64,000 nt of DNA, taken from positions 187,129 through 251,128 of the forward strand of contig JAJFFF010000001.1 in the NCBI GenBank assembly GCA_021776785.1, read 5' to 3'. The position numbers were made by a program, and so were the translations under genes. How positions within the stretch are numbered: the stretch's first letter is position 1; the number at the start of each line of letters is the position of its first letter. This document shows, one piece after another, positions 2,277-37,387 of the stretch. The notes under the pieces were generated by a model, which saw only the letters and a list, made by a program, of their open reading frames with translations, was not told the origin of the DNA and made no database searches. The DNA comes from Planctomycetota bacterium (GTDB lineage Bacteria; Planctomycetota; PLA2).

Positions 2277-2297
2277 GCTCCCGCTAACTCTCCGACA

Positions 2298-13408: not shown

Positions 13409-14581
13409 TCAGCGGCGCAGTTGGCGGGCGGCCGCGATGACAAGGTCCGCCGCCGTGGCGATCTCGGTCTCCGTCGTGAATCGGCCCAGGCCGAAGCGGA
13501 GCGAAGATCCGGCGCGGCTGGGGTTTACTCCCATCGCCGCCATGACGTGCGACATCGAAAGCTGGCCCGAGGCGCAGGCCGCCCCGCTCGAAATGGCGAT
13601 CTCGGGGACGGCCATCATGAGCGCTGTGTTTTCCACGCCAGGGATCGAGATGTTGAGGTTGCCCGGGAGCCGACCGTCGGGGTCACCGTTTTCTAATAGA
13701 TCGGGAATCCCGTCCTGGAGCCGGTCGCGCAGACGGTCGCGCAGGCTCGACACGCGGGCGGTCTCCTCGTCCATTTCGAGGCGGCACAGCTCGCACGCCA
13801 TCCCGAGTCCCACGATGCCGGGCACGTTCAGCGTACCCGCGCGCATGCCGCGCTCTTGGCTGCCGCCGAAGTTTTGCGCGACCAGGCGGACGGCCGGGTT
13901 GCGGCGTCGCACGTACAGCGCGCCCGCCCCTTGAGGTCCGTGAATCTTGTGCGCGGTGAGCGAGGCGAGATGGATGGTATCGGTGATCACGTTGAGGGGT
14001 AAACGTCCCACGCCCTGTGTGGCGTCCGAGTGGAGCCAGGCGCCGCACGCTTCCGCGATCGCGCCCAACTCGCGCACCGGTTGCGTCGTCCCGATTTCGT
14101 TGTTCGCCACCATCACCGACAGGAGTGCTGTCTTTTCGTCGGCGGCTGCGCGCGCGGCGTCCACCGAAACGCGTCCGAGAGAATCGACGGGCAAGACGGT
14201 GACCCGGACGCCCGCGGCTCGCAGCGACTCGACCGTGTCGAGCACGGCGGGGTGTTCAATCGGCGACGTGATGATGTGGTCGCGGACATCGCGGCGCGCG
14301 GCGACCGCCCCGCGAATCGCCAGGTTGTTGGATTCGGTCGCGCCCGAGGTGAACACGATTTCCCGGGATTCGGCGCCCAACAGTTGGGCGACCTGCTCGC
14401 GAGCGCGCTCGACGGCTTTTTCCGCATCCCAGCCAAAAACATGCGACCGGCTGGACGCATTGCCGAATTTCTCGCGAAAGTACGGCAGCATCGCGTCGAG
14501 CACCCGGGGGTCCACGGGCGTTGTGGCGTGATTGTCCAGATAGATCGGCATCGGATCGGGGCAGGGGGCGCGGTCGCTCAT
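13409..14581 (-). CDS. iscS: class I cysteine desulfurase (IscS/NifS family, PLP-dependent)
   Basis: IYLDNHATTPVDPRVLDAMLPYF, FTSGATESNNLAIRG and SLTAHKIHGPQGAGALYVRR (PLP lysine motif) are all present. It is divergent from the A-type Fe-S carrier gene. Confidence 0.9.
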   Translation of the reverse strand: MSDRAPCPDPMPIYLDNHATTPVDPRVLDAMLPYFREKFGNASSRSHVFGWDAEKAVERAREQVAQLLGAESREIVFTSGATESNNLAIRGAVAARRDVRDHIITSPIEHPAVLDTVESLRAAGVRVTVLPVDSLGRVSVDAARAAADEKTALLSVMVANNEIGTTQPVRELGAIAEACGAWLHSDATQGVGRLPLNVITDTIHLASLTAHKIHGPQGAGALYVRRRNPAVRLVAQNFGGSQERGMRAGTLNVPGIVGLGMACELCRLEMDEETARVSSLRDRLRDRLQDGIPDLLENGDPDGRLPGNLNISIPGVENTALMMAVPEIAISSGAACASGQLSMSHVMAAMGVNPSRAGSSLRFGLGRFTTETEIATAADLVIAAARQLRR

Positions 14582-14716
14582 TCCCTGGCTCGTCGGATGG
14601 TATCATTGGTGCACAAGAGGCCCGCGCGCCTCTAACTCGTGTTGTTCCAAAGACTTATCGAATCTACAGATTAGGATCGGTTGGCGGAGCGGCCAGGATC
14701 GGAGTCGGAGAGCATT

Positions 14717-15052
14717 ATGCCGAGCATCAGCATCACCGAAAAAGCGGCCGTCAAAGGCAAGGAACTGATCACGTCCCAGGCAGAAGGGATGGAGCAGCCG
14801 GGTCTGCGGGTGCGCGTCATCGGCGGCGGCTGCTCCGGCATGATGTATCAGATGGAGTTCGCCGACGGCCAAGCTGAAGGCGACGAAACGATGGAGCGCG
14901 ACGGCTTTCGGGTCTACATCGACAAGAAGTCGCTCTTTTTCCTCAACGGAAGCGAACTCGACTATCTCGAGGGCCTAACCGGAGCAGGGTTCAAATTCAA
15001 AAACCCCAACGCCACCGGCACCTGCGGCTGCGGCGAATCGTTTAGCGCCTAA
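14717..15052 (+). CDS. A-type iron-sulfur cluster carrier (IscA/ErpA/HesB family)
   Basis: MPSISITEKAAVKGKELI... ends in the conserved C-terminal CGCGESF. It is divergent from the cysteine desulfurase. The track ORF starts at TTG 14681, but the ATG at 14717 fits family N-termini. Confidence 0.8.
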   Translation: MPSISITEKAAVKGKELITSQAEGMEQPGLRVRVIGGGCSGMMYQMEFADGQAEGDETMERDGFRVYIDKKSLFFLNGSELDYLEGLTGAGFKFKNPNATGTCGCGESFSA

Positions 15053-15054
15053 AC

Positions 15055-15553
15055 CAACACCAACGGAACCAGCGGTCGGCGGACCCAGCGCGACGACCGC
15101 CTCAGCGATAAAGCCACCAGCATCCGCGGAGCGCGAGACACGCGCAGCAAGCGTGAGCGGCATTTGCGAACAACCCCAACCGCAAATCGATCGCATTCCT
15201 CTAGCCACTCAACGGCGTCAGCCGGTGAGGAATAAACACAGAACGGCGTCAGCCGGTGAGGAATAAACACTTGCGAACGACCCCAATCACGAAGCGATTG
15301 CGGTCCTCTACCCGCTTCACCGGCGTCAGCCGGTGAGCCATAAACACAGACCGGCGTCAGCCGGTGAGCCATAAACACAGACCGGCGTCAGCCGGTGAGC
15401 CATAAACACTTGCGAACGACCCCAATCGCGAAGCGGTTGCGGTCCTCTACCCGCTTCACCGGCGTCAGCCGGTGAGCCATAAACACAGAACGGCGTCAGC
15501 CGGTGAGCCATAAACATTTGCGGAGGACCCCAATCGCGAAGCGATTGCGGTCC
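15055..15553. repeat. compound REP/BIME-like intergenic repeat array
   Basis: About 7 copies of a 26-27-nt near-palindromic unit (ggcgtcagccggtgagccataaacac), mostly separated by 5-nt linkers. They are interleaved with 3-4 copies of a 51-nt unit (ttgcgaacgaccccaatcgcgaagcgattgcggtcctctacccgcttcacc) containing a CAATCGC-GAA-GCGATTG hairpin. The last copy forms a long GAGGACC..GGTCCTC hairpin abutting the stop of the minus-strand nuoB paralog. It lies between convergent genes. Confidence 0.85.
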
Positions 15554-16084
15554 TCACGCAACAGCGTCTTTGACCTGATCGAGGATCTCTTCGGCGTTTT
15601 TTTCGCCGCTGATCTGGTCTTGGAGCGTCATCAGCGCTTTGAGCACCGCTTCGGGGCGCGGCGGGCAACCGGAGATGTAGAGATCGACGGGGACGACCTC
15701 ATCGATGCCCTGGACCACCGGATACGACCGGAACATGCCGCCACTGCTTGCGCACGCGCCCATAGCGATCACCCATTTGGGCTCCGCCATCTGGTCGTAC
15801 ACGCGGCGCATGACGTCCGCCATCTTGTAGGTGAGCGTGCCGGCCACGACCATCACGTCGGCTTGCCGCGGGCTAAACCGGGCCACTTCGGCGCCGAATC
15901 GCGCCATGTCGAAGCGCGAACACGCGACGGCCATGAATTCGATGGCGCAACAGCTCAGGCCCATCGGCAGCGGCCAAAGTGAGTTCTTGCGGCTCCAGTT
16001 GACCAGCGCATCCAGGCGCGAAACGAAGAACCCGCCCTCGGTCTGCTGGTCGGGGGCATGGACATCGACGGTGGCTTTGCTCAT
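15554..16084 (-). CDS. nuoB: NADH-quinone oxidoreductase subunit B paralog (NuoB/NQO6, 20-kDa Fe-S subunit), monocistronic and head-to-head with nuoA
   Basis: [23 protein letters not shown]..., [14 protein letters not shown] and [13 protein letters not shown] are the N2 cluster ligand motifs. It is highly similar to the NuoB encoded at 16750. Confidence 0.85.
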
Positions 16085-16252
16085 GACGTGGTCAGTATAT
16101 CCTTTGGACCAAACGAGGTCGCGGCAAAGGGCGAACTACAGCCCGGGAAACCGCTCTTTGAGCGGGCATATCTGGAGAGCGGGGAGGCCCGATGGCATAA
16201 TCCCGCGCTCTGGGGCCTAGGGTCCCGTTTTGCCCCTCTCAACCACCCAAAA

Positions 16253-16750
16253 ATGCTCACGGCCTCGACACTATTCCAGGGGTTCGGGAACGTTCTCGTC
16301 TTCGGCGCGTTCGGAGCGATTTTCGTTTGGCTCAACCTCTTCGTCATCGGCAAGCTCCTTTTACGGCGCCCCGAGGCGCCCGACCAAGGCGACAAACGCA
16401 CCACCTATGAGTGCGGCGAACCGACGATTGGCGACGCGTGGATTCGGTTTGATATCCGCTTCTACACGATCAGCTTGATCTTTTTGATCTTCGACATCGA
16501 AGTCGCGTTGCTGTTTCCGTGGGCTGTGGTCTACGACGAATTCATCGCGGCCGGTCACGGCCTTGCGGCGTTTGTCGAGGTCTTGGTGTTTCTCGTCGTG
16601 CTCGGCGTCGGCCTCGCCTATGTCTGGGTGCGGCGCGACATCGAGTGGACGAGCACGCGCCCTGGACGCGCGGTGTCTGAAGAGACGCTCGAAGGCGGCG
16701 TTGTGCGGGAGCCGCCAGTGGCGGCGAGCCCGACGGAGGAAGTGTCGTAA
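16253..16750 (+). CDS. nuoA: NADH-quinone oxidoreductase subunit A
   Basis: [28 protein letters not shown]...[41 protein letters not shown] is the canonical NuoA/ND3 sequence. The internal ATG at 16253 is preferred over the track start at 16058. There is a 40-aa acidic/Pro C-terminal extension. Confidence 0.85.
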
Positions 16751-17841
16751 TGGCCGATCCCAAGACCATTCGTCCCGACACGGCGCGGCCTGGACGCCCG
16801 GCATACATGCCGCCGCCGGAGCGCTTCGATCCCGAGCTCGAACAGACGATTCTGCTCACCAAAGCGGAGTGGTTAATCGACTGGGGACGCAAGTCCGCAC
16901 TCTGGCCGTTGGGTTTTGGTCTCGCTTGCTGCGCGATCGAGATGATCTCGACGGCGATGGTGAAGTACGACATCTCGCGTTTTGGCGCGGAGGTGTTTCG
17001 CGCGACGCCGCGCCAAGCCGACGTGATGATCGTGGCCGGCACCGTGACGCACAAAATGGCGCCGCGCGTGCGTCGCCTTTGGGATCAGATGTCGAAGCCC
17101 AAGTGGGTGATCGCGATGGGTGCTTGCACCGTCGGCGGTGGCCCCTACTTCGTGCATGGCTATCACGTCGTGAAGGGCGTCGATAAGGTCGTGCCCGTCG
17201 ACATCTACTTGCCGGGTTGCCCGCCTCGCCCCGAAGCGTTGCTGGAAGCGGTCATGCGGTTGCAGGAACTCGTCACGTCGCGTTCCAAGCGTCTTAACGA
17301 TCAGGATCCCGACTACACGCCGCCCGAAAAGGGTTCGGTGCAAGCGGTGATGGATGGTTTGAGTCCGGCCGAGCCGTGGCTCACCGACGAGGCGAAGGTC
17401 CACAACGCCAAGAAGCAAGCGGCTGAAGAAGCGGCGGCCAAGAAGAAGGCGGAGGCTGCCGCTGCGAAGAAGGCGGCCGCGGAAGCCAAGAAGAAAGCCG
17501 CAGAAGAAGCCGCCGCGAAAGAAGCGGCGGAGCCCAAAGCCGATGCGCCCAAGGCGGAGCCGAAAGCCGACGCGCCCAAGGCGGAGCCGAAGGCCGACGC
17601 GCCCAAGGCGGAGCCGAAAGCCGACGCGCCCAAGGCGGAGCCGAAGGCCGAAACGCCCAAGGCGGAGCCGAAGGCCGAAACGCCCAAGGCGGAGCCGAAG
17701 GCCGAAGACGCGAAGCCTGCTGCTAAGCCGGACGCGCCCAAAGCGGACGCGCCGAAGCCGGACGCGGCTCCCAAGGATGCGCCCCAAAAAGAGGATCCCA
17801 AGAGCGGCGATCCCAAGAGTGGCGATGGGGGTGACGCATGA
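16750..17841 (+). CDS. nuoB: NADH-quinone oxidoreductase subunit B with ~180-aa Ala/Lys/Pro/Glu low-complexity C-terminal extension
   Basis: The NuoB core ([49 protein letters not shown]) is followed by (AEPKADAPK)n repeats. The start overlaps the nuoA stop. Confidence 0.9.
17534..17710 (+). repeat. tandem 27-nt coding repeat (~6.5 copies) encoding KAEPKADAP units
   Basis: The unit gccgaYgcgcccaaggcggagccgaaR recurs directly in the sequence. The antisense ORFs in the track (GRFGLRLRL...) are artefacts of this repeat. Confidence 0.85.
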
Positions 17842-18302
17842 TGACGCCCGCCGCCGCGCTGCAAGAAGCGCTTCCCGATGCGGTCGTCGAAGTCATTGAA
17901 GACGGCACGCATCCGTTTGTGCGCGTCCAAGGCGAGAAAATCGTCGAGGCCGCGCGCGTGCTGCGCGAAAAGTGCGGCGCCGAGATGTTGCACCAAGTCT
18001 CGGGCATGGACTTTGAAGACCGCTACGAAGTCGTTTACCACTTTGCGCGTCTCGCCAGTCCCGCCGAGTTTTTCTGCCTTAAGGTTTCGCTGCCGCGCGA
18101 CAACCCCCAACTACCGTCGCTCGCGAACGAGTGGCGTGCGGCGAACTGGGGCGAGCGCGAGACATGGGACTTGATGGGGATTCGATTCATCGGCCACCCG
18201 CATCACTACCGCATTTTGTTGTCGGAAGATTGGGTAGGCCACCCGCTGCGTAAGGACTATCAGATGCCGACGAGCTATCACGGCATCGATTGCACGAAGT
18301 GA
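17838..18302 (+). CDS. nuoC: NADH-quinone oxidoreductase subunit C (30-kDa subunit)
   Basis: DRYEVVYHF...[23 protein letters not shown] is the NuoC family signature. It overlaps nuoB (ATGATG). Confidence 0.9.
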
Positions 18303-19483
18303 CCATGGAAACGATCCAGGGAGTCAAACTCAACGAGGGCGAACGCGCCGCGCCGGTTCTGCCGCGCGACATTCAATCGGATGAGCTCGTCTTCAACATG
18401 GGCCCGCAGCACCCGTCCACGCACGGCGTGTTGCGCTTGATGTTGCGGACCGACGGCGAAGTCGTGTTGGAGGCGCAGCCGCTTATCGGCAATCTCCATC
18501 GCTGCTGCGAAAAGATCCTCGAGAACCTGACGTATGTGCAGGGCCTGCCCTATGTCGATCGCATGGACTATCTCGGTGCGATCAACATGGAGATGGGGCT
18601 TGTGCTGCCCGTCGAAAAAGCGGCCGGTGTCGAAGTGCCGAAGCGCGCGCAGTATCTGCGCGTCGTCATGTGCGAATTGAACCGCGTGATCAGTCACCTG
18701 TTTGCGGCCGGCCAGTTCGGTCTCGACATGGGCGCGTTCACACCGTTCCTCTACATGTTCCGCGAGCGCGAAGAGGGCATCAATGTCCTCAACGAGATCA
18801 CGGGTGGGCGGCTGCTTTACCACTACATCCGCTACGGCGGCGTGACGCGCGACGTTCCCAAGGGTTGGATCGAGCGCTGCTTGAAGTGGTGCGATCGCGT
18901 TGACGAACACATGGACGAGTACAACTCGCTCCTTACGTACAACCACATCTTCTTGAATCGCACGTGCGGCGTCGCCGTGCTCGACAAAGAGACGTGCTTG
19001 GACTACGGCGTTACCGGTCCGATTCTGCGCGCCGCCGGCGTGCCGCGCGATCTGCGCAAGGACATGCCTTACTCGTGTTATGAGGACTTCGACTTCGACG
19101 TCCCCGTCGGACCGTTCGAGAAGGGCGTCGCCGGCGATTCCTGGAACCGCCACCGCCAGCGTTTGCGCGAGGCGGAAGAGAGCATCAAGATCATTCGCCA
19201 GGCGTTGAAGAACTTGCCCGAGGGCGAGACGCAACACCCGAAGGTGACGCGCGCGTGGAAAGCGCCTGCCGGTGAGGCTTACGTCGCATCGGAAGCACCG
19301 CGCGGCGAGATCTCTGCGTACTTCGTATCCGACGGCGGCAAGTTCCCGTACCGCATGCGGATGCGCGGCCCGTCGTTTTACAACATCGCCGTTTTGGAGA
19401 CGTGCTCGCGCGGACTCTTAATCGGTGACCTGATCGCGCTCATGGGGAGCGTGGACATTACTTTGGGCGAGGTGGACCGATGA
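18290..19483 (+). CDS. nuoD: NADH-quinone oxidoreductase subunit D (49-kDa subunit)
   Basis: NMGPQHPSTHGVLRL...RMDYLGAINMEMGL...YYNIAVLETCSRGLLIGDLIALMGSVDITLGEVDR is canonical NuoD. Confidence 0.9.
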   Translation: MHEVTMETIQGVKLNEGERAAPVLPRDIQSDELVFNMGPQHPSTHGVLRLMLRTDGEVVLEAQPLIGNLHRCCEKILENLTYVQGLPYVDRMDYLGAINMEMGLVLPVEKAAGVEVPKRAQYLRVVMCELNRVISHLFAAGQFGLDMGAFTPFLYMFREREEGINVLNEITGGRLLYHYIRYGGVTRDVPKGWIERCLKWCDRVDEHMDEYNSLLTYNHIFLNRTCGVAVLDKETCLDYGVTGPILRAAGVPRDLRKDMPYSCYEDFDFDVPVGPFEKGVAGDSWNRHRQRLREAEESIKIIRQALKNLPEGETQHPKVTRAWKAPAGEAYVASEAPRGEISAYFVSDGGKFPYRMRMRGPSFYNIAVLETCSRGLLIGDLIALMGSVDITLGEVDR

Positions 19484-20580
19484 TCCTCGCCGAAGTGGTC
19501 CCGCTGTCCGCCAAGCTCGCCGTCCTCATGGCGGACTTTGTCGGCGCATCGCCGATCTGGATTTTTCATGCGATCGGATCGTTGATCGTGGCGGTCGGTG
19601 TGTTGGCCTTAGTCGTCACACCGGTCGGTCTCGGCGGCGTGTACTTGGAGCGCAAGCTCGCCGGCCGCATGCAAAACCGTAGCGGTCCGAACCGCGTCGG
19701 CCCGTACGGCTTGCTGCAAACGCTCGCCGATGGCGTGAAGCTCCTCGCGAAAGAGGACATTGCGCAGGAAGGCGCGGACCTTCCGCTCTTCCGCATGGCG
19801 CCCTACATCGTGTTCCTGGCGGCGTTCGCTGGGTTTGTGGTGTTGCCCTTTGCGCCAGGAGTGATCGCCGCGGACTTAGATGTCGGCATCTTTTACTTCT
19901 TGGCGCTCATCGGACTCGAGACGATCGGCATCGTCATGGCGGGCTGGTCGTCGAACAACAAGTGGTCGCTGCTTGGTTCCATGCGCGAAGTCGCGCAGGT
20001 CGTGAGCTACGAACTGCCGCTCGGTATTTCCGCGATGGTGCCCGTGATTGCGGCGGGCACGATGTCGGTCTACGGCATCACCGAAGCCCAAAGCGGCCAC
20101 ATCTTCAACTGGTTTCTACTCAAGGACGGCTACTGGGCGATCGTCATGATCCCGTCGTTCTTGGTCTTTTATGTGTCGAGTCTCGCGGCCGCCAAGCGCG
20201 CGCCGTTCGACCTGCCCGAGGCGGAGTCGGAACTCGTTGCCGGATTCCACACCGAGTATTCGGGGATGCGTTTCGGCATGTTCTTCCTGCCTGAATACGC
20301 CGTGATGTTGTCGCTAAGCGGCATCACGACGGCGCTCTTTTTGGGTGGCTGGCACGACCCGTTCGGCATGTCCGGCGAGGGTGGAACGTTTCACAATGTG
20401 TGGTGGTGGGGCCTGATCTGGTTCTTCTTAAAAGCCACGATCTTGTTCCTGTCGCAGATCCTGTTGCGCTGGACGCTGCCGCGTCTGCGCGTCGACCAGG
20501 TGATGTACCTCTGCTACAAGGTTTTGCTGCCCATTTCGATGGTGTGTCTCGTGGTGGCCGCCGCGATGAGGTTGATCTAA
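19480..20580 (+). CDS. nuoH: NADH-quinone oxidoreductase subunit H (ND1)
   Basis: ERKLAGRMQNRSGPNRVGPYGLLQTLADGVKLL... is canonical NuoH, and the protein is multi-TM. It directly follows nuoD, with no nuoEFG between. Confidence 0.9.
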   Translation: MILAEVVPLSAKLAVLMADFVGASPIWIFHAIGSLIVAVGVLALVVTPVGLGGVYLERKLAGRMQNRSGPNRVGPYGLLQTLADGVKLLAKEDIAQEGADLPLFRMAPYIVFLAAFAGFVVLPFAPGVIAADLDVGIFYFLALIGLETIGIVMAGWSSNNKWSLLGSMREVAQVVSYELPLGISAMVPVIAAGTMSVYGITEAQSGHIFNWFLLKDGYWAIVMIPSFLVFYVSSLAAAKRAPFDLPEAESELVAGFHTEYSGMRFGMFFLPEYAVMLSLSGITTALFLGGWHDPFGMSGEGGTFHNVWWWGLIWFFLKATILFLSQILLRWTLPRLRVDQVMYLCYKVLLPISMVCLVVAAAMRLI

Positions 20581-21056
20581 TGCTGAGCTTTCGCCAATGG
20601 GCCGGCAACGTGTGGAACGGTCTTAAGACGACCTTTACCGGGCTGTCGATCACCGTCCCTTACATCTTTCGTAAGCCGTACACGCTGCAATACCCCGAAG
20701 AGGTGCCGGAGATTCCGACGACGGAACGCGGCCTGCACAACTTCGAGGTCGATCTCTGCATCGCCTGCGATCAGTGCGCCAAGATTTGCCCCGTCGATTG
20801 CATCGCGATCGAGGCGGAAGGCAAAGGCAAGTTCGCGCGCATGACGAAGTTCGAAATCGACTACACGAAGTGCCTCTTTTGCGCGCTTTGCTGTGAGCCG
20901 TGCCCGACCGAGTGCATTCACATGGGCCCGACGTTTGATCTTGTCGGGTACACGCGCGAAGAAGTCATCATCAACTACGCGGACCGCGAGAACCCACGGA
21001 CGTTTTCGGACGGCGAAAAGTTGCCGTACGAAATCGTCTCGTTCGCGAGGAAATAA
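20580..21056 (+). CDS. nuoI: NADH-quinone oxidoreductase subunit I (2x[4Fe-4S] ferredoxin-like)
   Basis: CIACDQCAKICP and CLFCALCCEPCP are two CxxCxxCxxxCP motifs. The start overlaps the nuoH stop (TAATG). The track ORF has a spurious N-terminal extension from 20400. Confidence 0.9.
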   Translation: MLSFRQWAGNVWNGLKTTFTGLSITVPYIFRKPYTLQYPEEVPEIPTTERGLHNFEVDLCIACDQCAKICPVDCIAIEAEGKGKFARMTKFEIDYTKCLFCALCCEPCPTECIHMGPTFDLVGYTREEVIINYADRENPRTFSDGEKLPYEIVSFARK

Positions 21057-21059
21057 CGG

Positions 21060-21557
21060 ATGGGTATCGACGCGATCGTCTGGTGGCTGTTTGCCGCTGT
21101 TTCCGTTGTGGGAAGTTTGTTTGCGGTGCTCTCGCCGAGCATCGTGCGGGCTGTGTTCTCGCTTCTGCTCGCGTTCGGCGGAGTCGCCGGCATCTATGCG
21201 GTGGCGGGCGCGGACTTCTTGGCGATTTTGCAAATCGTCGTCTACGTCGGCGGCGTGCTCGTACTGATCGCATTCGGCATTTTGCTGACGGGGCGGACAG
21301 CCCAGGCGTTGGGCGAGCACGAGGTCAAGAACCGCCCGCTCGGCATCTTGATCGCGGCCGGCATCTTCATCGGCCTGCTTGGCGCGCTCATGAAGTCGAG
21401 CTTCAAAATCGGCGGTAACGCCACCAATGAACCGACGACCGAAGCCATCGGCAAGCTCTTGCTCGGCGACTACATCGTCGCGTTCGAGTTCGCATCGGTG
21501 TTCCTGTTGATGGCGCTGATCGGCGCTGCGTACTTGGTGCGAAGGGAAGAGGCATGA
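21060..21557 (+). CDS. nuoJ: NADH-quinone oxidoreductase subunit J (ND6)
   Basis: Hydrophobic ~165-aa protein in the position and size of NuoJ. LAILQIVVYVGGVLVLIAFGILL matches the NuoJ core. Confidence 0.85.
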   Translation: MGIDAIVWWLFAAVSVVGSLFAVLSPSIVRAVFSLLLAFGGVAGIYAVAGADFLAILQIVVYVGGVLVLIAFGILLTGRTAQALGEHEVKNRPLGILIAAGIFIGLLGALMKSSFKIGGNATNEPTTEAIGKLLLGDYIVAFEFASVFLLMALIGAAYLVRREEA

Positions 21558-21859
21558 GTATTGGTCCGTACCACTACCTCGGTCTCGCCGCGGCGCTATT
21601 CGCCATCGGTGTGATCGGTGTCGTCACGCGGCGTAACGCGATCGGCGTACTGATCGGCGTCGAGCTGATGCTCAACGCGGCCAACATCAACCTTGTCGCG
21701 TTCAGTCGCTTCAGCGGCGGGCTCGATGCGCAGATCTTTGCGATCTTCGTCATCGTGATCGCGGCAGCGGAAGCCGCCGTCGCGCTGGCGATCATTTTGC
21801 AACTCTTTGAAAAGCGCAGCGACGTCGATGTGGACCGCGCGCGGACGTTGAGGGGCTAA
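21554..21859 (+). CDS. nuoK: NADH-quinone oxidoreductase subunit K (ND4L)
   Basis: ~100 aa with 3 TM helices. GLAAALFAIGVIGVVTRRNAIGVLIGVELMLNAANINLVAFS is the canonical NuoK sequence. Confidence 0.9.
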   Translation: MSIGPYHYLGLAAALFAIGVIGVVTRRNAIGVLIGVELMLNAANINLVAFSRFSGGLDAQIFAIFVIVIAAAEAAVALAIILQLFEKRSDVDVDRARTLRG

Positions 21860-21863
21860 ACGA

Positions 21864-23873
21864 GTGCAAGTCGATCTTCCTTCTTACGTCCCGTGGATCA
21901 TTTTTGCGCCGGCGATTGCCGCGCTGATCCAGCACTTCCGTGGCGAGAAGTTGCCGCGCAAGGGCGACCTCGTCGTCATCGGCGGCATCTTGGTGTCGGC
22001 GTTTTTGAGCTTCCGCCTCATGTTCGAGTGGGCGGCCCTTGAGCCCGGCCAATACTTCGAGCAGACGTGGTCCTGGTTCACGCTTGCCGGCGGTCATACG
22101 TTCACGATGGGCATCGTGGTCGATGGGTTAACCGCGTCGTTGCTTTGCGTGGTCACACTCGTCGCGACGCTGGTGTTCTGTTTCTCAACGGCCTACATGA
22201 AGGGTGACGAGTACTACCACCGCTTCTTCTTCTGGCTTTCGTTCTTCGCCGTGTCGATGTTGATCCTCACGCTCGCGGACAACTTGCTCATGCTCTTCAT
22301 GGGCTGGGAGCTCGTGGGCCTTTGCTCATACAAGCTGATCGGCTTTTGGAGCAAGGAGATCCCGAACGCGGAGGCGGCCAAGAAAGCGTTCATCACGACG
22401 CGCGTGGGCGACGTCGGCATGCTCATCGGCATGTTGATCCTCTACGCGACATGCGACTCGCTTTCGATCAAGGCCATCTTCGAGGGCGTGCAGGCCGGCA
22501 AGTTCGCCGGTTCCGAGACCGCGCTCACGTGGGCCGGGATCGGCATCTTCTTCGGCGCGGTTGGTAAGTCGGCGCAGTTCCCGCTCCAGATCTGGCTGCC
22601 GGACGCGATGGCGGGTCCGACACCGGTTTCCGCCCTCATCCACGCGGCCACGATGGTCGCGGCGGGCGTATATCTGACGGCGCGAATGTTCCCGATCTTT
22701 ACGCCGGACGCGCTCGGCTTTATCGCCTGGACCGGCGGCATCACGGCGCTCCTGGCGGCATTGGTCGCGTTTACGCAGACCGACATCAAGAAGGTGCTCG
22801 CGTACTCGACGGTGAGTCAGCTCGGGTACATGATCATGGGTGTCGGCGTCGGCGCGCCGTGGGCGGGCATGTTCCACCTCACGACGCACGCGATGTTTAA
22901 GGCGTGCCTGTTCCTGGGTTCGGGTTCGGTCATCCACGCGATGCACCACGCCCAAGACCTAAAGGACATGGGCGGATTGGCCAAAAAGATGCCGATCACG
23001 TTCGCCACGTTCTCCATCGCGACGTTGGCGCTTGCGGGCGCACCGTTTTTCTCGGGCTTTTTGAGCAAGGACGCGATCCTGATCGAAGCGTGGGAGAACG
23101 GGCACGGAGCGCTGTTTTTCATCGGACTCGGCGCCGCGTTCGGCACCGCGTTCTACATGGGCCGCTTGGTCTACCTCTGCTTCTTGGGCAAGCCGCGCAA
23201 CCAGGAGAAGTACGACCACGCGCACGAGTCGCCGTGGGTCATGACGGTGCCGCTGATCATCTTGGCGGCGCTCTCGCTGTCGGTGTTTTACGACGGGTTC
23301 GCGGACAAGTTCTATCGGACGCCCGCGTACGCCGCGGAGTTTCCGATCACGGAGACGAACACGCACGCGTACTGGACGACGGGCCAAAGACCCGACGACT
23401 TCCACGAGGGCCACGGCCCGAGTTGGTTTCACACCGTCGCGATGTTGATGGGGGTGATCGGACTCGGTGTCGGCGGCGCGATCTTTATGTCCGGCAAGCG
23501 CAACGAGAAGACGCGCTTGTTGCCGTCGGGCCTGCACGACCTGGCCGCGGGCAAGTACTACATGGATGAACTCTATCTCGATGGGTTTGTCGCCTCTGCG
23601 AATCGTCTGGCCGACGGCTGCACATGGGTGGACGACAACATCGTCGATGGGTTGGTCAATACATCCGGGAAGGGCGGCCTCGTCTTAGGCGTGGTGAGCG
23701 CGGACGCGGATCAGTTAGTGGTGGACGGCGCCGTCAACTTGACGGCCGCCGCGACACAGGGTGCCGGTGCGGTTGCTTCGACCGCGCAATCGGGACGGGT
23801 ACGTAACTATTTGGCTGCAGCACTCGGCGTTACCGCCGTCGCAGTCGTTCTCTTAGTGTTCGTGATTGGATAA
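21864..23873 (+). CDS. nuoL: NADH-quinone oxidoreductase subunit L (ND5, antiporter-like)
   Basis: 669 aa. MGWELVGLCSYKLIGFW and the TTHAMFKACLFLGSGSVIHAMHHAQDL motif are present. Confidence 0.9.
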   Translation: MQVDLPSYVPWIIFAPAIAALIQHFRGEKLPRKGDLVVIGGILVSAFLSFRLMFEWAALEPGQYFEQTWSWFTLAGGHTFTMGIVVDGLTASLLCVVTLVATLVFCFSTAYMKGDEYYHRFFFWLSFFAVSMLILTLADNLLMLFMGWELVGLCSYKLIGFWSKEIPNAEAAKKAFITTRVGDVGMLIGMLILYATCDSLSIKAIFEGVQAGKFAGSETALTWAGIGIFFGAVGKSAQFPLQIWLPDAMAGPTPVSALIHAATMVAAGVYLTARMFPIFTPDALGFIAWTGGITALLAALVAFTQTDIKKVLAYSTVSQLGYMIMGVGVGAPWAGMFHLTTHAMFKACLFLGSGSVIHAMHHAQDLKDMGGLAKKMPITFATFSIATLALAGAPFFSGFLSKDAILIEAWENGHGALFFIGLGAAFGTAFYMGRLVYLCFLGKPRNQEKYDHAHESPWVMTVPLIILAALSLSVFYDGFADKFYRTPAYAAEFPITETNTHAYWTTGQRPDDFHEGHGPSWFHTVAMLMGVIGLGVGGAIFMSGKRNEKTRLLPSGLHDLAAGKYYMDELYLDGFVASANRLADGCTWVDDNIVDGLVNTSGKGGLVLGVVSADADQLVVDGAVNLTAAATQGAGAVASTAQSGRVRNYLAAALGVTAVAVVLLVFVIG

Positions 23874-23876
23874 GCG

Positions 23877-25436
23877 ATGTCAGCGCTGACCTTTGCCATT
23901 TTTGCCCCGATTGTGGGCATGATCGCCATCCTCTTTGTCAAAAAAGAGGAAGCCGAGAAGGCGAAAACCATTGGTTTTCTCACCTCGCTGGTGATGTTTG
24001 CAGCCTGCACGTATGTCGCGTGGCAGTGCTTCCACATTCCGGAGGGCCAGCAGTACGTTCTGGAATCGAAGGCGCTTTGGATCGACCTCGGCGGGTCGTT
24101 CCAAGTGCACTATCACATCGGCGTGGACGGCTTGTCCGGCATGCTGATCTTCCTGACGGGTTTGCTGTCGGTGTGCGCCGCGCTCGCGTCGTTCACGATC
24201 AAGCAAAGCGTGCGCGGCTACTGGGCGATGTTCCTGTTGCTCCACTGCGGCGTCATCGGAACGTTTGCGTCCTTAGACATGTTCCTGTTCTACGTGTTCT
24301 GGGAGATCATGCTCCTGCCGATGTATTTCCTCATCGGCGTGTGGGGCGGGCCGCGGCGGATCTATGCCGCGATCAAGTTCTTCCTATACACGTTGTTTGG
24401 CTCGATCTTCCTGCTCGCAGGCATCCTGATCGTGTACTTCGCCGTTACGGCGGAGGGTTCCGGATTTACGGGGAACCCATTTAGCATCCCGGACCTAACG
24501 GACTACGCGCTCGCGATGAAGGGGAGCGGAGGCATCCTCCACAACTTCGCGTCGAGCCTGTCGTGGATCCCAACGGCTGTGTTCTGGGGTATGTTCGTCG
24601 CCTTCGCGGTGAAGGTGCCGGTGTTCCCGTTCCACACGTGGTTGCCCGACGCGCACGTTGAAGCGCCGACGCCGATCTCGGTCATCCTGGCCGGCATCCT
24701 GTTGAAGCTCGGCGGCTACGGCATGTTGCGCATCAACTTCCCGCTGTTCCCCGAGGTGTTGGCGGATAGCGCGTTCATCATCGGAACGTTGGGCTGTATC
24801 AGCATCGTGTACGGCGCGCTCGTCGCGATGGCGCAGACTGACTTCAAGAAGATGGTCGCGTACTCGTCCGTGTCGCACATGGGCTTTTGCTTGCTCGGCT
24901 TCGCATCGATGACGAGCGAAGGCATGAACGGCGCGATTCTGCAGCTGTTTAACCACGGCACGATCTCCGGCATGCTGTTCTTGGTGGTCGGCGTCGTGTA
25001 CGAACGCGCGCATCACCGCGACTTAAACCGCTTCGGCGGCTTGATGTGGCGCATGCCTGTGTACGCCACGATTTCGTCGATTGCGATCTTCGCGTCGATC
25101 GGCCTCCCAGGCCTGTCCGGTTTCTGGGGCGAGTTCTTGTCGTTCGCCGGATCGTTTAAGGGCCTCTACAGCGGCGCGAAGATCATCACGGTCATCGCTA
25201 CGCTCGGCCTTGTGTTCACGGCGGCGTACTACTTGCGCGCCATCCAAAAGGTGTTTCTCGGGAAGACCAACCCCGCGTGCGAACAGTTCCCTGACCTGGA
25301 CAAGCGCGAGTTCTGGATGATCATGCCGCTGCTTGTGCCGACGATCTTGTTCGGTATCTATCCGAAGTACTTAATCGAGATCTACCAACCGTTCGTGGAG
25401 AGCTTCATGACCCTGGTGGCTAAGGTCGGAGCGTAG
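23877..25436 (+). CDS. nuoM: NADH-quinone oxidoreductase subunit M (ND4)
   Basis: FYVFWEIMLLPMYFLIGVWGG...HTWLPDAHVEAPTPISVILAGILLKLGGYG is canonical NuoM. Confidence 0.9.
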   Translation: MSALTFAIFAPIVGMIAILFVKKEEAEKAKTIGFLTSLVMFAACTYVAWQCFHIPEGQQYVLESKALWIDLGGSFQVHYHIGVDGLSGMLIFLTGLLSVCAALASFTIKQSVRGYWAMFLLLHCGVIGTFASLDMFLFYVFWEIMLLPMYFLIGVWGGPRRIYAAIKFFLYTLFGSIFLLAGILIVYFAVTAEGSGFTGNPFSIPDLTDYALAMKGSGGILHNFASSLSWIPTAVFWGMFVAFAVKVPVFPFHTWLPDAHVEAPTPISVILAGILLKLGGYGMLRINFPLFPEVLADSAFIIGTLGCISIVYGALVAMAQTDFKKMVAYSSVSHMGFCLLGFASMTSEGMNGAILQLFNHGTISGMLFLVVGVVYERAHHRDLNRFGGLMWRMPVYATISSIAIFASIGLPGLSGFWGEFLSFAGSFKGLYSGAKIITVIATLGLVFTAAYYLRAIQKVFLGKTNPACEQFPDLDKREFWMIMPLLVPTILFGIYPKYLIEIYQPFVESFMTLVAKVGA

Positions 25437-25440
25437 CCCC

Positions 25441-26949
25441 ATGTTGCTCGCGCAGTCTTGGATCCCCGATCTCTCGGCGATCTTCACGCAGTTCGCCGCC
25501 GAAGCGGTGTTGTGCTTGGCGATCCCGGTGATCATTTTGGCCGACGTGTTCGCCGGCCCGGCGCGCCGCGAGAAGGTAGCGGGGCTGATCGGTATGGGGG
25601 CGTTGGTGCTGGCATTCGTGCTCGCACTCATCCAACCCGCCGACGGCGTCATGCTGACGAAGCTTCTGCGCGCGGACGGCTTAGCGAAGGCCTTCCGGCT
25701 GATCGCGATTGCCACCGGCGTGATCGCCGCCGTCGGCGCCATGCGCGGCGAGATTACGAAAGCGCGCACGGAGTTTTACGTGTGCCTGCTCGGCGCCGTC
25801 GTGGGGGCCTGCCTGACCGCGGCCGCCAACGATCTGGCGATGCTGTATCTCGCGATCGAAACGCTTTCGATCGCCGGCTATCTCCTCGCGGGCTTTCGCA
25901 AGGACAACGCCAAGAGCGCCGAGGCTGCCATGAAGTACGTGATCTTCGGCGCGATCGCGTCGGCGATCATGCTCTACGGCATGACGCTTGTGTACGGCTT
26001 TGCCGGCACATCGACGATCGCCACGCCGGAAGGAATGACGTACGCATCCATCGCAAGCGAAGCGGCAACCGCCGCCATGTCGCCCGCGTTCTTGATCGCG
26101 GTCGTCTTGGTGTTCGCCGGTCTCGCCTACAAAATCGCGGCGGCTCCCTTCCAGTTCTGGTGCCCGGACGTTTACGAGGGCGCACCCACTTCGGTCGCGG
26201 CGTTTTTGGCCGTGGCAAGCAAGGGCGCGGGCTTCGCGGTCATCCTGCGCTTTTTCTCAGCCGTGACGAGCGGCGGCGACATGACGGAGACCCTGCAGGC
26301 GGTGCTGCTCATTGTCGCGTTGGTCACGATGACCATCGGCAACCTGGCGGCACTGCGGCAAAACAACGCGAAGCGTCTGCTCGCGTACAGCGCCATCGCG
26401 CACGCGGGATACCTGTTGGTCGGCGTCGCCGTAACCAATCAGGCCGGCGCGACGGCGGTGGTGTTCTACATGATGGTCTACCTGTTTATGACGCTCGGTG
26501 CGTTCTACATGGTGGGCATCGTGGAGAGGCAGACCGGTCGCACCGATATCGACGCCTACACGGGCCTTGGCTTCCGCGCCCCGATGTTCGCAGCGTGCTT
26601 GGCGATCTGCTTGATCAGCTTGACGGGCCTGCCGCCGACGGCCGGTTTCCCGGGCAAGTTCTTCCTGTTCCAGCAGGTATTTGCGCACGCGGGCGAGCAG
26701 CAATCGTCGCTCTTTTTCTGGGGCGGCGTGATTGGGTTGCTCAACGGCGTGATTTCGCTGGGCTACTACACGCGCTTTCTCAAAGTCATGTATCTCTGCG
26801 ACCGTGACCAGATCCCGACGGGAAGTTTCGCGTTTGGCGGCATCGACCGCGGCATGGTGTTGATGCTGACGGCGCCTGTCTTGGTGTTGGGCATCGCGTT
26901 TCAGGGATTGCGTGAACTGGCGGACACGCTGGCGAAGGGGATCTTTTAA
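25441..26949 (+). CDS. nuoN: NADH-quinone oxidoreductase subunit N (ND2)
   Basis: LAMLYLAIETLSIAGYLLAGF...FQFWCPDVYEGAPTSVAAFL is canonical NuoN. Confidence 0.9.
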   Translation: MLLAQSWIPDLSAIFTQFAAEAVLCLAIPVIILADVFAGPARREKVAGLIGMGALVLAFVLALIQPADGVMLTKLLRADGLAKAFRLIAIATGVIAAVGAMRGEITKARTEFYVCLLGAVVGACLTAAANDLAMLYLAIETLSIAGYLLAGFRKDNAKSAEAAMKYVIFGAIASAIMLYGMTLVYGFAGTSTIATPEGMTYASIASEAATAAMSPAFLIAVVLVFAGLAYKIAAAPFQFWCPDVYEGAPTSVAAFLAVASKGAGFAVILRFFSAVTSGGDMTETLQAVLLIVALVTMTIGNLAALRQNNAKRLLAYSAIAHAGYLLVGVAVTNQAGATAVVFYMMVYLFMTLGAFYMVGIVERQTGRTDIDAYTGLGFRAPMFAACLAICLISLTGLPPTAGFPGKFFLFQQVFAHAGEQQSSLFFWGGVIGLLNGVISLGYYTRFLKVMYLCDRDQIPTGSFAFGGIDRGMVLMLTAPVLVLGIAFQGLRELADTLAKGIF

Positions 26950-27455
26950 TGCTCGACCACGAAGCGAAGATCTCGGTCCTGAATCGGACACTTCATCACA
27001 CCGTGAACTCGGTGCTGCAATACGTCGAAGTTTCGACGCCCTATATTCCGGCGGGATTTGAGGATCGATACGAAGCGGTGAAACTTCTCCGCGACGAGGA
27101 AATCGCGAGCGCCAACAAGTTGGTCGACATGATCAACGGGCTGGACGGCGTTCCGTCGGTCGGCGTCTTTCCGTATTGGAACGTCGACCTGAACTATCTC
27201 GATTTTCGTTTCATGGCGGAGTTCGCCGCGCAGCACATCGCGAAAGCGATCGCCGTTTTGGAGCGTGACCTGGCAACCGTTGGCCGCGACGCCGAGTTGG
27301 TGGCGCTCCTGGGCGACGTCTTGAAGCAACGACGCGTCCATCACGACGCTTTGCTGGTTGCCAGTGGTGCCGCCGACGAAATCGCTGCCGAAGCCGCTGC
27401 CGAGGCCGCCCAAAAATCGACCGACGAAGCCAAAACCGCTGACGCGGCGGAGTAG
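26949..27455 (+). CDS. hypothetical protein translationally coupled to nuoN (168 aa, helical, Ala/Glu-rich C-terminus)
   Basis: The ATG overlaps the nuoN stop (TAATG). I recognise no family. Confidence 0.5.
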   Translation: MLDHEAKISVLNRTLHHTVNSVLQYVEVSTPYIPAGFEDRYEAVKLLRDEEIASANKLVDMINGLDGVPSVGVFPYWNVDLNYLDFRFMAEFAAQHIAKAIAVLERDLATVGRDAELVALLGDVLKQRRVHHDALLVASGAADEIAAEAAAEAAQKSTDEAKTADAAE

Positions 27456-27521
27456 CGCGTTCCGCGCGCGGTGACCGGAATCGGCGGCGCTGTTTCCGGG
27501 CGATCGGGTTACGATGCCGAC

Positions 27522-28253
27522 GTGCTTCGATGGGCGATTTTCTTGGCTGTGTTGGGTGGCGCGTCCGGTTGCGGCGACGAGCCCGCTCCGACGCCTTCGG
27601 TGGACGCTTCCGCGTGGCAGGAGCAGCGCGACCGCATGGTTGCGACCACGATTGCTACGCGCGGTGTGAAGGACGAAGCCGTGTTGGCCGCGATGCGATC
27701 GGTTCCGCGGCATGCGTTTGTGCCGGAGTCGCATCGGCAGCACGCGTACGACGATCGCCCGCTTCCCATCGGCGACGGACAGACGATCAGCCAACCGTTT
27801 CTCGTTGCGATCATGGCGCAGGAGGCGCACATCGAGCCCGGCGACAAGGTGTTGGAGGTCGGGACCGGGTCCGGCTACAGCGCGGCGGTGTTGTCGAAGC
27901 TGGCGAAAAACGTGTGCACGATCGAAATCGTGCAGTCGCTCGGTGAGCAAGCCGCGGCGCGCCTTAAAGAACTCGGGTTTTCCAACGTCGCCGTTCGCAT
28001 CGGCGATGGCTACCAGGGTTGGGCGGAAGAGGGGCCGTTTGACGCGATCATCGTGACGGCGGCGTCGCCCGAAGTGCCCGAACCGCTCAAGCAACAGCTC
28101 AAGGTCGGTGGTCGGCTCGTGATTCCGGTCGGCACCAACGTGCAACACCTGCGCGTCATCACGTGCCATCTCGATGGGTTTCGCGAGGAGCCGCTCTTTC
28201 GCGTGCGGCTGGGCCCAATGACCGGCGAAGCAGCGAAGGCCGAGGACCGCTGA
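27522..28253 (+). CDS. pcm: protein-L-isoaspartate O-methyltransferase, lipoprotein form
   Basis: Pcm motifs are present (GDGQTISQPFLVAIMAQ, VLEVGTGSGYSAAVLSKLA, RLVIPVG). GTG 27522 gives MLRWAIFLAVLGGASGC, a lipobox-like signal. The track ORF starts at 27471. Confidence 0.8.
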   Translation: MLRWAIFLAVLGGASGCGDEPAPTPSVDASAWQEQRDRMVATTIATRGVKDEAVLAAMRSVPRHAFVPESHRQHAYDDRPLPIGDGQTISQPFLVAIMAQEAHIEPGDKVLEVGTGSGYSAAVLSKLAKNVCTIEIVQSLGEQAAARLKELGFSNVAVRIGDGYQGWAEEGPFDAIIVTAASPEVPEPLKQQLKVGGRLVIPVGTNVQHLRVITCHLDGFREEPLFRVRLGPMTGEAAKAEDR

Positions 28254-31157: not shown

Positions 31158-31463
31158 TTACATCAGCCCGAGCTGTAGCTTGGCTGCTTCGCTGAGCTTG
31201 GTCTGATCCCAGGGCGGATCCCAAACCAGGTCAACGGCGGCGGTGTCGACGCCTTCGACGGCGAGGACTTTTTGTTCGACTTCGCCGGGCAGCGTGCCCG
31301 CCACCGGACACGCCGGCGACGTCAGCGTCATCTTCACGTACGCGTGGTCATCGGCATCGACCTTGACCTCGTAGATCAAGCCCAAGTCGTAGATGTTGAC
31401 CGGAATTTCTGGGTCAAACACCGTTTGCAGCGCCGCGATGATGCGTTCTTTTGTGGATTCCAT
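31158..31463 (-). CDS. sufT: Fe-S cluster assembly protein SufT (DUF59/MIP18 family)
   Basis: IYDLGLIYEVKVDADDHAYVKMTLTSPACPVAG matches DUF59. It is the last gene of the suf operon. Confidence 0.75.
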   Translation of the reverse strand: MESTKERIIAALQTVFDPEIPVNIYDLGLIYEVKVDADDHAYVKMTLTSPACPVAGTLPGEVEQKVLAVEGVDTAAVDLVWDPPWDQTKLSEAAKLQLGLM

Positions 31464-31478
31464 CGTTTCGTCTCTCTT

Positions 31479-31922
31479 CTACTCCGTGGTCGCGACTTTG
31501 TCTTCGCCCTTGAGCGCGGCGAGCAGTGTGTGCCACGACAGCGTCGCACACTTTACGCGCATCGGGAACTCTCGCACGCCGGAGAACACGGCCAATTTTT
31601 CCAAACTTTCGTGGGGCTCGACCGGCTTCGTGACCAACTCGCGAAAGTGGCCAAACAGCTCTTTGGTCTGCGCCACGGTCATGCCCTTGACCATTTGCGT
31701 CAGCAGCGACGCCGATGCCGTGGAGATCGCACATCCCTGCCCCTGAAACGAGACGTCCGCGATGGTTTCGCCGTCCATCGTCACGAACATGTGAATGCGA
31801 TCGCCGCAAAGAGGGTTGTGCCCATCGGCTTCGCGCTGCGCGTTTTCGATCACACGAAAGTTCCGCGGCTTGCGCCCGTGGTCCAGAATCAACTGCTGGT
31901 ACAGATCGCGCAGTTCGCTCAT
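31479..31922 (-). CDS. sufU: SufU/IscU-like Fe-S scaffold / sulfurtransferase (NifU N-terminal fold)
   Basis: NPLCGDRIHMF, FQGQGCAISTASASL and VKCATLSWH are present. The internal ATG at 31922 overlaps the sufS stop. Confidence 0.8.
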   Translation of the reverse strand: MSELRDLYQQLILDHGRKPRNFRVIENAQREADGHNPLCGDRIHMFVTMDGETIADVSFQGQGCAISTASASLLTQMVKGMTVAQTKELFGHFRELVTKPVEPHESLEKLAVFSGVREFPMRVKCATLSWHTLLAALKGEDKVATTE

Positions 31923-33157: not shown

Positions 33158-33183
33158 GGGGAAGCGCGCGAGGCGCTGCGGGA

Positions 33184-34452: not shown

Positions 34453-34464
34453 CGGTTCTCGCTT

Positions 34465-35223
34465 TTAGCTAGCCGCTCCGGCGAGCTCTTCGACCCAGCC
34501 GTAGCCCTTTTCTTCGAGCTCCAGCGCCAACTCCTTGCCGCCCGACTTCACGATGCGGCCTTGGTGCAACACGTGCACGTGATCCGGCACGATGTAGTTC
34601 AGCAAACGCTGGTAGTGGGTGATGACTAAGAATCCGCGATCCTTGTTGCGGAGACGGTTGACGCCGTCGGCGACGACGCGCAGCGCGTCGATGTCGAGGC
34701 CGGAATCCGTTTCGTCCAAGACGGCGAGCTTCGGATCGAGCACGGCCATCTGGAAGATCTCGTTGCGCTTCTTTTCGCCGCCCGAGAAACCCTCGTTAAC
34801 CGCACGCGACAAGAACTTCTCGTCCATATCGAGCTCTTTGGCTTTCGCCTTCGCGAGCTTTAGGAAATCGATCGCGTCCAGTTCTTCCAAGCCGCGCGCC
34901 TCGCGCACGGCGTTTACGCCCGCGCGCAGGAAGTAGCTGTTGGACACACCCGGAATCTCGACGGGGTACTGGAACGCCAAGAACAGGCCGGCGTGCGCCC
35001 GCGCGTCGGGAGCCATGTCGAGCAGGTCCTGGCCCAAGAAGTCGACGCTGCCTTCCGTGACTTCGTATTGGTCGCGTCCCGCCAGAACGCTGGCGAGGGT
35101 GCTCTTGCCGGACCCGTTCGGGCCCATGATGGCGTGCACTTCGCCCGCGTCGATGGAAAGGTTAATGCCGCGGAGGATCTCTGTGTCCTCGATACCGGCG
35201 TGCAAGTTGCTGATCTTGAGCAT
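34465..35223 (-). CDS. sufC: Fe-S cluster assembly ATPase SufC
   Basis: Walker A (GPNGSGKST), ABC signature (FSGGEKKR), Walker B ([12 protein letters not shown]) and the H-loop are all present. The start at 35223 is 3 nt after the sufB stop. Confidence 0.9.
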
Positions 35224-35225
35224 GA

Positions 35226-36674: not shown

Positions 36675-36679
36675 ACCTA

Positions 36680-37117: not shown

Positions 37118-37387
37118 GAGTCGAATTCCGGCCCCAAAACCGCCCGTCAGCTCTCTCATGCTGACCCTCGCAGAAGTCGGCGAGGAAAAGAGGATGCTTT
37201 GGGTCCCGTTTCCAAGGGAACCCTATCAGGACCGCTCGAACCGTCAAATTATCGAGGGGCTTGTCGTCCCGACTTCCGAGAAGTCTAATTTCGATAAGTC
37301 CATGACCACAAAGTAGTTATGGAATTAGGACTGGTTAATTCCTCTTTTTGGGGCGCGGGCTTTTCGGGGGATTTCGCGCGGGCGGAT

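Follow-up and report, generated by a model that had tools for sequence, protein, structure and literature searches.

A 64,000-nucleotide stretch of the genome of a Planctomycetota bacterium (GTDB lineage Bacteria; Planctomycetota; PLA2; NCBI GenBank assembly GCA_021776785.1, contig JAJFFF010000001.1, positions 187,129 to 251,128 of the forward strand), here called the window, carries a complete, self-contained 11-gene complex I-like operon of the NDH-1 type, nuoA-B-C-D-H-I-J-K-L-M-N. Head-to-head with nuoA lies a second nuoB gene, the product of which is referred to as NuoB'. Judged from its sequence, NuoB' is an intact, fully constrained and unmodified NuoB of the canonical 14-subunit type that is kept under purifying selection. 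Tentatively, we favor the interpretation that it provides the N2 cluster to canonical-type complex I subunits which would be encoded outside the window. The G+C content of the window is ∼63% and its nearest relatives are uncultured Planctomycetota metagenome-assembled genomes (MAGs).

The eleven nuo genes were assigned from the listing of open reading frames (ORFs) and from Pfam and NCBIfam scans, and were found to be contiguous, in the order given above, at positions 16254-26949. The preliminary description of this DNA had stated that nuoD runs straight into nuoH. Indeed, the end of nuoD overlaps the start of nuoH by 4 bp, and therefore no gene is missing at this position. Six-frame searches of the 64-kb window for NuoE, NuoF and NuoG (tblastn, E ≤ 1e-3), for which the proteins of the planctomycete 14-gene operon L004 were used as queries (L numbers denote related loci), did not give any matches, and the Pfam domains of ∼40 further ORFs in the window are unrelated to NuoE/F/G. 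The reported set of eleven genes and the lack of nuoEFG in the window could thereby be confirmed.

Complex I-like operons of 11 genes without N-module are a known and widespread class, of which the electron donor is unresolved (PMC11238625). The operon had been placed in this class before, and the placement agrees with NuoD, the best match of which among all solved structures in the PDB is cyanobacterial NdhH (6hum_H, E 6e-100). NuoD scored 338 bits against NdhH, compared to 136 and 114 bits against the hydrogenase large subunits MbhL and HycE, respectively. Combining these scores with the N2 ligands in the operon NuoB, the Q-module is of the complex I/NDH type and not that of a [NiFe] hydrogenase. 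Both 4Fe-4S motifs (CxxCxxCxxxCP) could be identified in the NuoI translation; in the relatives NuoI is called at 158 aa. Because it has its own N2-competent NuoB, both NuoI clusters, an NdhH-like NuoD and a conserved promoter, the operon is predicted to encode a self-sufficient enzyme of this already known NDH-1-type class. At NuoD residues ∼70-76 (window ∼18480-18500) the motif LHRGxEK, which is highly conserved, reads LHRCCEK. The same two positions are CC, SC or CA in the 11-gene relatives and SK, AK or GK in 14-type planctomycete NuoDs, i.e., those of 14-gene nuoA-N operons.

Since NuoEFG are absent from the operon, the 11-gene enzyme would have to receive its electrons from something other than the canonical N-module. 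Going by cyanobacterial NDH-1, its closest solved relative, the donor is likely reduced ferredoxin or a different docking partner. In the relative L089, which has the same nuo/NuoB'/IscA layout as the window, genes for pyruvate:ferredoxin oxidoreductase are located at 17808-20534, ∼8 kb away. This enzyme is a possible source of reduced ferredoxin for an N-module-less complex.

Table 1. Features of the nuo region and its flanks, with coordinates in the window.
Feature	Position	Strand	Remarks
IscS/NifS-type cysteine desulfurase	13409..14581	-	Pfam Aminotran_5, E 8e-75
A-type Fe-S carrier (IscA/ErpA/SufA family)	14681..15052	+	Pfam Fe-S_biosyn, E 1e-21; convergent with NuoB'
Hairpin repeat array	15164..15555	.	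Between IscA and the NuoB' 3' end; found with Tandem Repeats Finder (TRF)
Lone nuoB (NuoB')	15554..16084	-	176 aa; PF01058; NF011390; N2 ligands C45/C46/C111/C140
Predicted NuoB' -10-like hexamer	16094..16099	-	TATACT, 9 nt upstream of the NuoB' ATG
Predicted nuo-operon promoter, sigma-70-type	16173..16201	+	-35 TGGAGA, 17-nt spacer, extended -10 TG-n-CATAAT
nuoA	16254..16750	+	Pfam Oxidored_q4, E 1e-29; start is the ATG preceding the conserved region
Operon nuoB	16750..17841	+	363 aa; PF01058; divergent core and ∼185-aa C-terminal extension
nuoC	17838..18302	+	Pfam Complex1_30kDa, E 3e-38
nuoD	18290..19483	+	Pfam Complex1_49kDa, E 6e-88
nuoH	19480..20580	+	Pfam NADHdh, E 1e-112
nuoI	20580..21056	+	Pfam Fer4 families; start is the ATG overlapping the nuoH stop
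nuoJ	21060..21557	+	Pfam Oxidored_q3
nuoK	21554..21859	+	Pfam Oxidored_q2
nuoL	21864..23873	+	NCBIfam NF005141, 626.5 bits (cut-off 556)
nuoM	23877..25436	+	TIGR01972, 566.5 bits (cut-off 263.8)
nuoN	25441..26949	+	TIGR01770, 348.1 bits (cut-off 332.6)
ORF168	26949..27455	+	168 aa; ferritin-fold four-helix-bundle protein; start overlaps the nuoN stop
pcm, protein-L-isoaspartate O-methyltransferase (PCMT)	27471..28253	+	Pfam PCMT, E 2e-59; conserved after ORF168

The lone gene is located on the opposite strand next to nuoA, as described before. NuoB' clears the NCBIfam equivalog model for NuoB (NF011390) with 296.7 bits (cut-off 281) and its best PDB match is Nqo6 of T. thermophilus (E 3.6e-61). 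C45, C46, C111 and C140 align one-to-one with the N2 cysteines of Nqo6, in agreement with the earlier statement that all cysteines for N2 are present. The small subunit of a hydrogenase could be ruled out as the identity of NuoB', as MbhJ and HycG gave 94 and 81 bits compared to 209 bits for Nqo6.

The two NuoBs had been called near-identical, which did not hold. NuoB' and the operon NuoB are 52% identical over 164 residues, and across seven related genomes the identity of the two forms is 50-59%. Therefore, they are old paralogues of different kinds, and a recent duplication of the operon nuoB is ruled out both by this identity and by the tree described below. When only the core domain was compared, NuoB' was 56% identical to the operon NuoB and 75%, with a maximum of 83%, identical to planctomycete 14-type NuoBs. 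The latter are mutually 76% identical, i.e., they are as far apart from each other as from NuoB'. In a neighbor-joining tree the orphan NuoBs were monophyletic in 82/100 bootstraps and nested in the planctomycete 14-type group in 70/100, with no long stem. The operon-type NuoB clade was monophyletic in 100/100 bootstraps and placed on a long branch. Of the 17 alignment columns that separate operon-type from canonical NuoB, 15 are of the canonical type in the orphans and one is of the operon type. Only five positions are specific for the orphans. The origin of NuoB' thus lies with the nuoB genes of 14-gene nuoA-N operons in planctomycetes.

Orthologues of NuoB' that are 78-89% identical are present in many Planctomycetota MAGs as intact ORFs of 176-178 aa. 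The ratio of nonsynonymous to synonymous substitution rates (dN/dS) between pairs of them is 0.05-0.22, at a dS of ∼0.4-1.3, which rules out a pseudogene. Degradation of the gene in related strains, which the preliminary description had named as a possible outcome, was not seen in any of the ∼8 lineages in which it was followed. It is the family model, the Nqo6 match, the core-domain identities, the tree, the diagnostic columns and the dN/dS that together define NuoB' as canonical and constrained. Decay of NuoB', or an artefact of annotation, can be excluded: apart from its isolation from other 14-type genes nothing would fit this reading, and the ORF is intact in many lineages, the dN/dS is low, all four N2 cysteines are conserved and the G+C content at third codon positions (0.81) is similar to that of the neighboring genes.

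Searches of genomes and metagenomes with NuoB' retrieved ∼160 loci, and all but ∼10 of these are regular nuoB genes that belong either to EFG-containing nuoA-N operons or, in other phyla, to split operons. The phyla represented include Planctomycetota, Verrucomicrobiota and Gemmatimonadota. The metagenome scan mainly gave canonical operons and added three or four new orphan loci. Separated nuoB genes were also observed elsewhere. A lone nuoB, several kb or more away from any other nuo gene, is present in L055, L056, L069 and L075, contigs of Acidobacteriota, Oligoflexia, Bryobacterales and Bacteroidia, and isolated nuoA-nuoB pairs are present in contigs of Ignavibacteria and Kapabacteria (L044, L059, L060, L072). 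Therefore, separation of nuoB and fragmentation of nuo operons are not unusual. In the planctomycete contigs L003 and L004, a reverse transcriptase gene (RVT_1) and a bAvd accessory gene were found immediately upstream of the 14-gene nuo operon, at 1722-3717 and 1717-3188, respectively, an arrangement that looks like a diversity-generating retroelement. L003 additionally encodes an HRDC protein and an adjoining protein with kinase/FGE-sulfatase domains.

The operon NuoB differs strongly from NuoB'. It passes subfamily-level NCBIfam models only. All N2 ligands (CC...C...C) are present and aligned with those of Nqo6. Its C-terminal extension (window 17300-17841) consists, in this order, of a conserved segment of ∼45 aa, a stretch rich in Ala, Lys and Glu, and a Pro-rich tail that ends in (AEPKADAPK)n repeats. 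At the DNA level, TRF identified a 27-nt tandem repeat in the tail with 6.7 copies and 95% identity at 17526-17705. The operon NuoBs of the relatives are 254-294 aa long compared to 363 aa in the window; the segment following the core is conserved and the length of the tail is variable. Pairwise dN/dS of the operon NuoB is 0.04-0.16. The tailed NuoB, ORF168 after nuoN and the PCMT gene after ORF168 are three lineage-specific features of the operon.

Compared to their 14-type counterparts, the operon NuoC, NuoD, NuoH and NuoI have an identity of only 30-40%. Docking onto such partners should bring co-adaptation, which is dramatic in the operon NuoB, whereas NuoB' shows none. Therefore, canonical partners are the simplest reading for NuoB', which, judging by its sequence and its rate of change, would still be bound to them. 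Its fixed neighborhood would then reflect the supply of Fe-S clusters and not a tailoring to the 11-subunit enzyme.

Several observations weigh against canonical partners. No 14-type nuo genes were found in the window, in the sampled related loci or in ∼200 kb of the clade. A 14-type operon lacking nuoB was not found either, although this was a weak test with a single context, P0178/L092, which is a complete 14-gene operon that includes a nuoB. With the NuoD of L004, the closest canonical operon, as a query the best matches were 63-70% identical. When five NuoB' and five 14-type NuoDs were compared by GenBank accession blocks, no common MAGs were found, which is likewise a weak test. Finally, NuoB' is head-to-head with the 11-gene operon in ∼8 related lineages, and the lineages sharing this layout are saturated at synonymous sites. 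By gene-neighborhood logic, conservation over such a distance argues for a functional tie to the 11-gene operon.

The layout nuoN...nuoA, divergent NuoB', convergent IscA-type carrier and IscS-type desulfurase was found in the window, L001, L005, L089/L090, L091, L093 and L094, and in part in L095; L093 and L087 are the same contig. The preliminary description had suggested that NuoB' is an alternative PSST subunit that is swapped into the same membrane arm. It would replace the tailed NuoB in the same 11-subunit enzyme, for example under Fe-S or oxidative stress, and give a tail-less Q-module. Such an exchange is possible but rather unlikely. In its favor, the window, L001, L005, L089, L091, L093 and L094 all have the divergent nuoA/NuoB' pair, and the conserved -10 element of NuoB', at a fixed distance from its ATG, implies independent regulation. 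Since the long C-terminal extension is present in the operon NuoB only, a functional difference between the two forms would be expected. A second nuo cluster was not found in the one context and the one accession comparison described above. However, NuoB' is not adapted to 11-type partners, neither in the diagnostic columns nor in its rate, although NuoC, NuoD and NuoH have diverged from the 14-type. The operon NuoB lacks none of the N2 ligands and is constrained even more strongly, and in the locus L002 NuoB' is part of a suf/mrp operon. The suggestion of a swap is therefore not supported by the diagnostic columns, the 75% and 76% identities or L002. It is retained because the pairing is strikingly conserved and because no canonical operon without nuoB was found.

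The A-type carrier adjoins NuoB' in every orphan locus in which that flank is covered. The carrier in the window scored 120.7 bits with TIGR00049 (cut-off 58.8). The top NCBIfam matches of the desulfurase are IscS-subfamily models, all under their cut-offs, and the IscS-type neighbor is also present in L001, L005, L089, L091, L093 and L094. In L002, a lactamase-B gene, IscA, NuoB', Mrp/ApbC, Rrf2 and sufBCDSUT form one Fe-S assembly operon, with spacings that include a 4-bp overlap of IscA and NuoB' and a 9-bp gap, and no nuo genes are located within 10 kb of NuoB'. Therefore, the constant neighbor of NuoB' is the A-type carrier and not nuoA. Besides this carrier, NuoB' is accompanied either by the IscS-type desulfurase or by the mrp/suf Fe-S assembly operon. 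In E. coli, A-type carriers mature the Fe-S subunits of complex I (PMC11327457).

A complete suf/mrp cluster for Fe-S assembly is also present in the window, 4-11 kb downstream of the nuo operon. It is located on the minus strand at 31158-39312 and consists of genes for SufT-like, NifU/SufU, SufD, SufB, Rrf2 and Mrp/ApbC proteins and a metallo-beta-lactamase-fold gene. The IscA-NuoB' pair of L002 is located exactly between the lactamase-fold gene and mrp, from which it follows that a rearrangement moved the pair between the ends of a ∼25-kb neighborhood.

It is improbable that NuoB' has a non-respiratory role in Fe-S assembly, as a protein that holds a [4Fe-4S] cluster or acts as assembly intermediate together with IscA and Mrp/ApbC. 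Recruitment of a subunit paralogue as a complex I assembly factor has occurred in the case of NDUFAF2, which is related to NDUFA12. The invariant adjacency to IscA, the closely packed operon of IscA, NuoB' and Mrp that opens the suf cluster of L002 and the many IscS-like, IscA, SufB, SufD, NifU and Mrp genes in the window would fit such a role. However, a change in function is expected to alter the constraint on the protein, which was not seen, and the orphan-specific positions are just the five mentioned above. Moreover, no protein with the NuoB fold is known to act as an Fe-S carrier.

Between the NuoB' start codon, which extends to 16084, and the nuoA ATG at 16254 there is a spacer of 169 bp. 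It had been described as a shared divergent promoter region. A single spacer indeed separates the genes, but the promoter-like elements in it are two separate ones arranged back-to-back and none is shared. The nuoA-side promoter was the only promoter-like site found within 15300-16400. Its -10 coincides with the block GGATTATnCCA (reverse strand), 10/11 bases of which are invariant in five related intergenic regions. On the other side, variants of the -10-like hexamer (TATACT, TATACT, TACACT, TAGAAT or TATAAT) precede the NuoB' ATG by 9-10 nt in the window, L001, L005, L089 and L091, and none of these has a Shine-Dalgarno sequence in front of NuoB'. The position of this predicted promoter and the lack of a Shine-Dalgarno sequence suggest that NuoB' is expressed from an independent, leaderless transcript. 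A search of the 169-bp spacer for a shared operator gave no candidate: conservation is limited to the nuoA promoter block and the NuoB' -10, and no palindrome stands out.

At the 3' side of NuoB', the repeat array has periods of 31, 108 and 139 nt (TRF), with 31-nt units within higher-order repeats of 108/139 nt. GGCGTCAGCCGGTGAG occurs in 7 exact copies in the array at 15164-15555 and nowhere else in the window, and the array is absent from 174 related loci. The minus-strand RNA of the array folds with z = -6.3 and terminator-like hairpins were flagged. The units resemble intrinsic terminators, and the array is likely a terminator or 3'-UTR structure. A search with Rfam found no families anywhere in the window.

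Downstream of the operon, the nuoN stop and the ORF168 start share TAATG at 26947-26951, as reported in the preliminary description. ORF168 encodes a soluble protein and matches Pfam Ferritin (PF00210) at the borderline, with 24.6 bits (cut-off 24.5). Its AlphaFold2 model (mean pLDDT 93) shows a four-helix bundle of the ferritin type to which one more helix is added at the C-terminus, and the top Foldseek matches in the PDB are bacterioferritin and Dps (TM 0.65-0.76, E ∼5e-4). Neither the window protein nor the family consensus has the ExxH motifs of canonical diiron ferroxidase sites (E, ExxH, E, ExxH) on helix B or D. Invariant positions are occupied by N, S, Q, Y, W and D; they include N12, N20, S21, Q24, Y25 and the 71-85 loop, and are concentrated in the long inter-helix loop VGVFPYWNVDLNYLD. 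Among 5.8 billion proteins 56 close homologues were found, and all those with a named organism are from Planctomycetota. At E ≤ 1e-30 the family has 2 representatives (at 50% identity) in 1.84 billion proteins, surrounded by a looser halo of uncharacterized ferritin-like proteins.

The order nuoN-ORF168-pcm is conserved in 6/6 related contigs, and the start of ORF168 abuts or overlaps the nuoN stop. An accessory subunit had been proposed on the basis of the coupling to nuoN. The conserved order is in line with this proposal, while association with the complex would follow from translationally coupled synteny only. Plausibly, ORF168 is an accessory, assembly or iron-handling protein linked to the 11-subunit enzyme. 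For pcm, an alternative start at GTG 27522 gives MLRWAIFLAVLGGASGC, which has the appearance of a lipoprotein-like signal peptide with a lipobox cysteine. Therefore, PCMT may be exported rather than cytoplasmic.

A broader scenario, which we regard as unlikely, would be that the clade lost its 14-subunit complex I and kept nuoB alone. The tail-less NuoB', with a leaderless promoter of its own and co-expressed with Fe-S supply genes, would then exchange with the tailed NuoB of the 11-subunit enzyme. The N2 subunit itself would thus be swapped, altering electron input or regulation, and ORF168 would be a new ferritin-fold accessory or assembly protein of this enzyme.

The interest of the locus hinges on whether these genomes hold the rest of a canonical complex I. 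If NuoB' serves a dispersed canonical complex I, as we tentatively favor, this would be ordinary operon fragmentation and deserve an annotation note only. Entry of NuoB' into the 11-subunit enzyme would instead make it the first example of an N2 subunit that can be exchanged. The new part is modest: a clade-specific variant with a tailed NuoB, an appended ferritin-fold gene and PCMT, and a stray canonical nuoB. The clade nevertheless offers three conserved and easily followed handles on 11-subunit enzymes, namely the tailed NuoB, the nuoN-coupled ferritin-fold gene and the Fe-S-linked second NuoB.

Compared to known systems, the window operon has the same eleven core genes in the same order as other 11-subunit NDH-1-type complexes, lacks NuoEFG and likewise encodes no electron donor (PMC11238625). 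It differs from them in the ∼185-aa extension of NuoB with its variable repeat tail, in the ferritin-fold and PCMT genes after nuoN and in the second, canonical nuoB head-to-head with nuoA. In contrast to cyanobacterial NDH-1, no ferredoxin-docking subunits of the NdhS, NdhV or NdhO type were seen in the window. ORF168 shares the four-helix-bundle fold with the bacterioferritin/Dps superfamily, but differs from its members by the missing ExxH motifs, the tiny close family and its constant position after nuoN.

NuoB' has the same length as canonical NuoB/Nqo6/PSST (2FUG/4HEA) and the same four N2 cysteines with the same numbering, and is 75-83% identical to the NuoBs of planctomycete nuoA-N operons, examples of which are L003, L092, L006 and L012. 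Unlike a canonical nuoB, its gene is located alone beside IscA and not between nuoA and nuoC. In cyanobacteria, exchangeable paralogues of NdhD and NdhF, which are antiporter-like membrane subunits, give the NDH-1L and NDH-1MS forms of NDH-1, and this swap has been shown biochemically. As with NdhD/NdhF, an extra copy of a core subunit outside the main operon could yield alternative forms of the enzyme, whereas the extra gene here encodes the N2 subunit and its exchange is only hypothetical.

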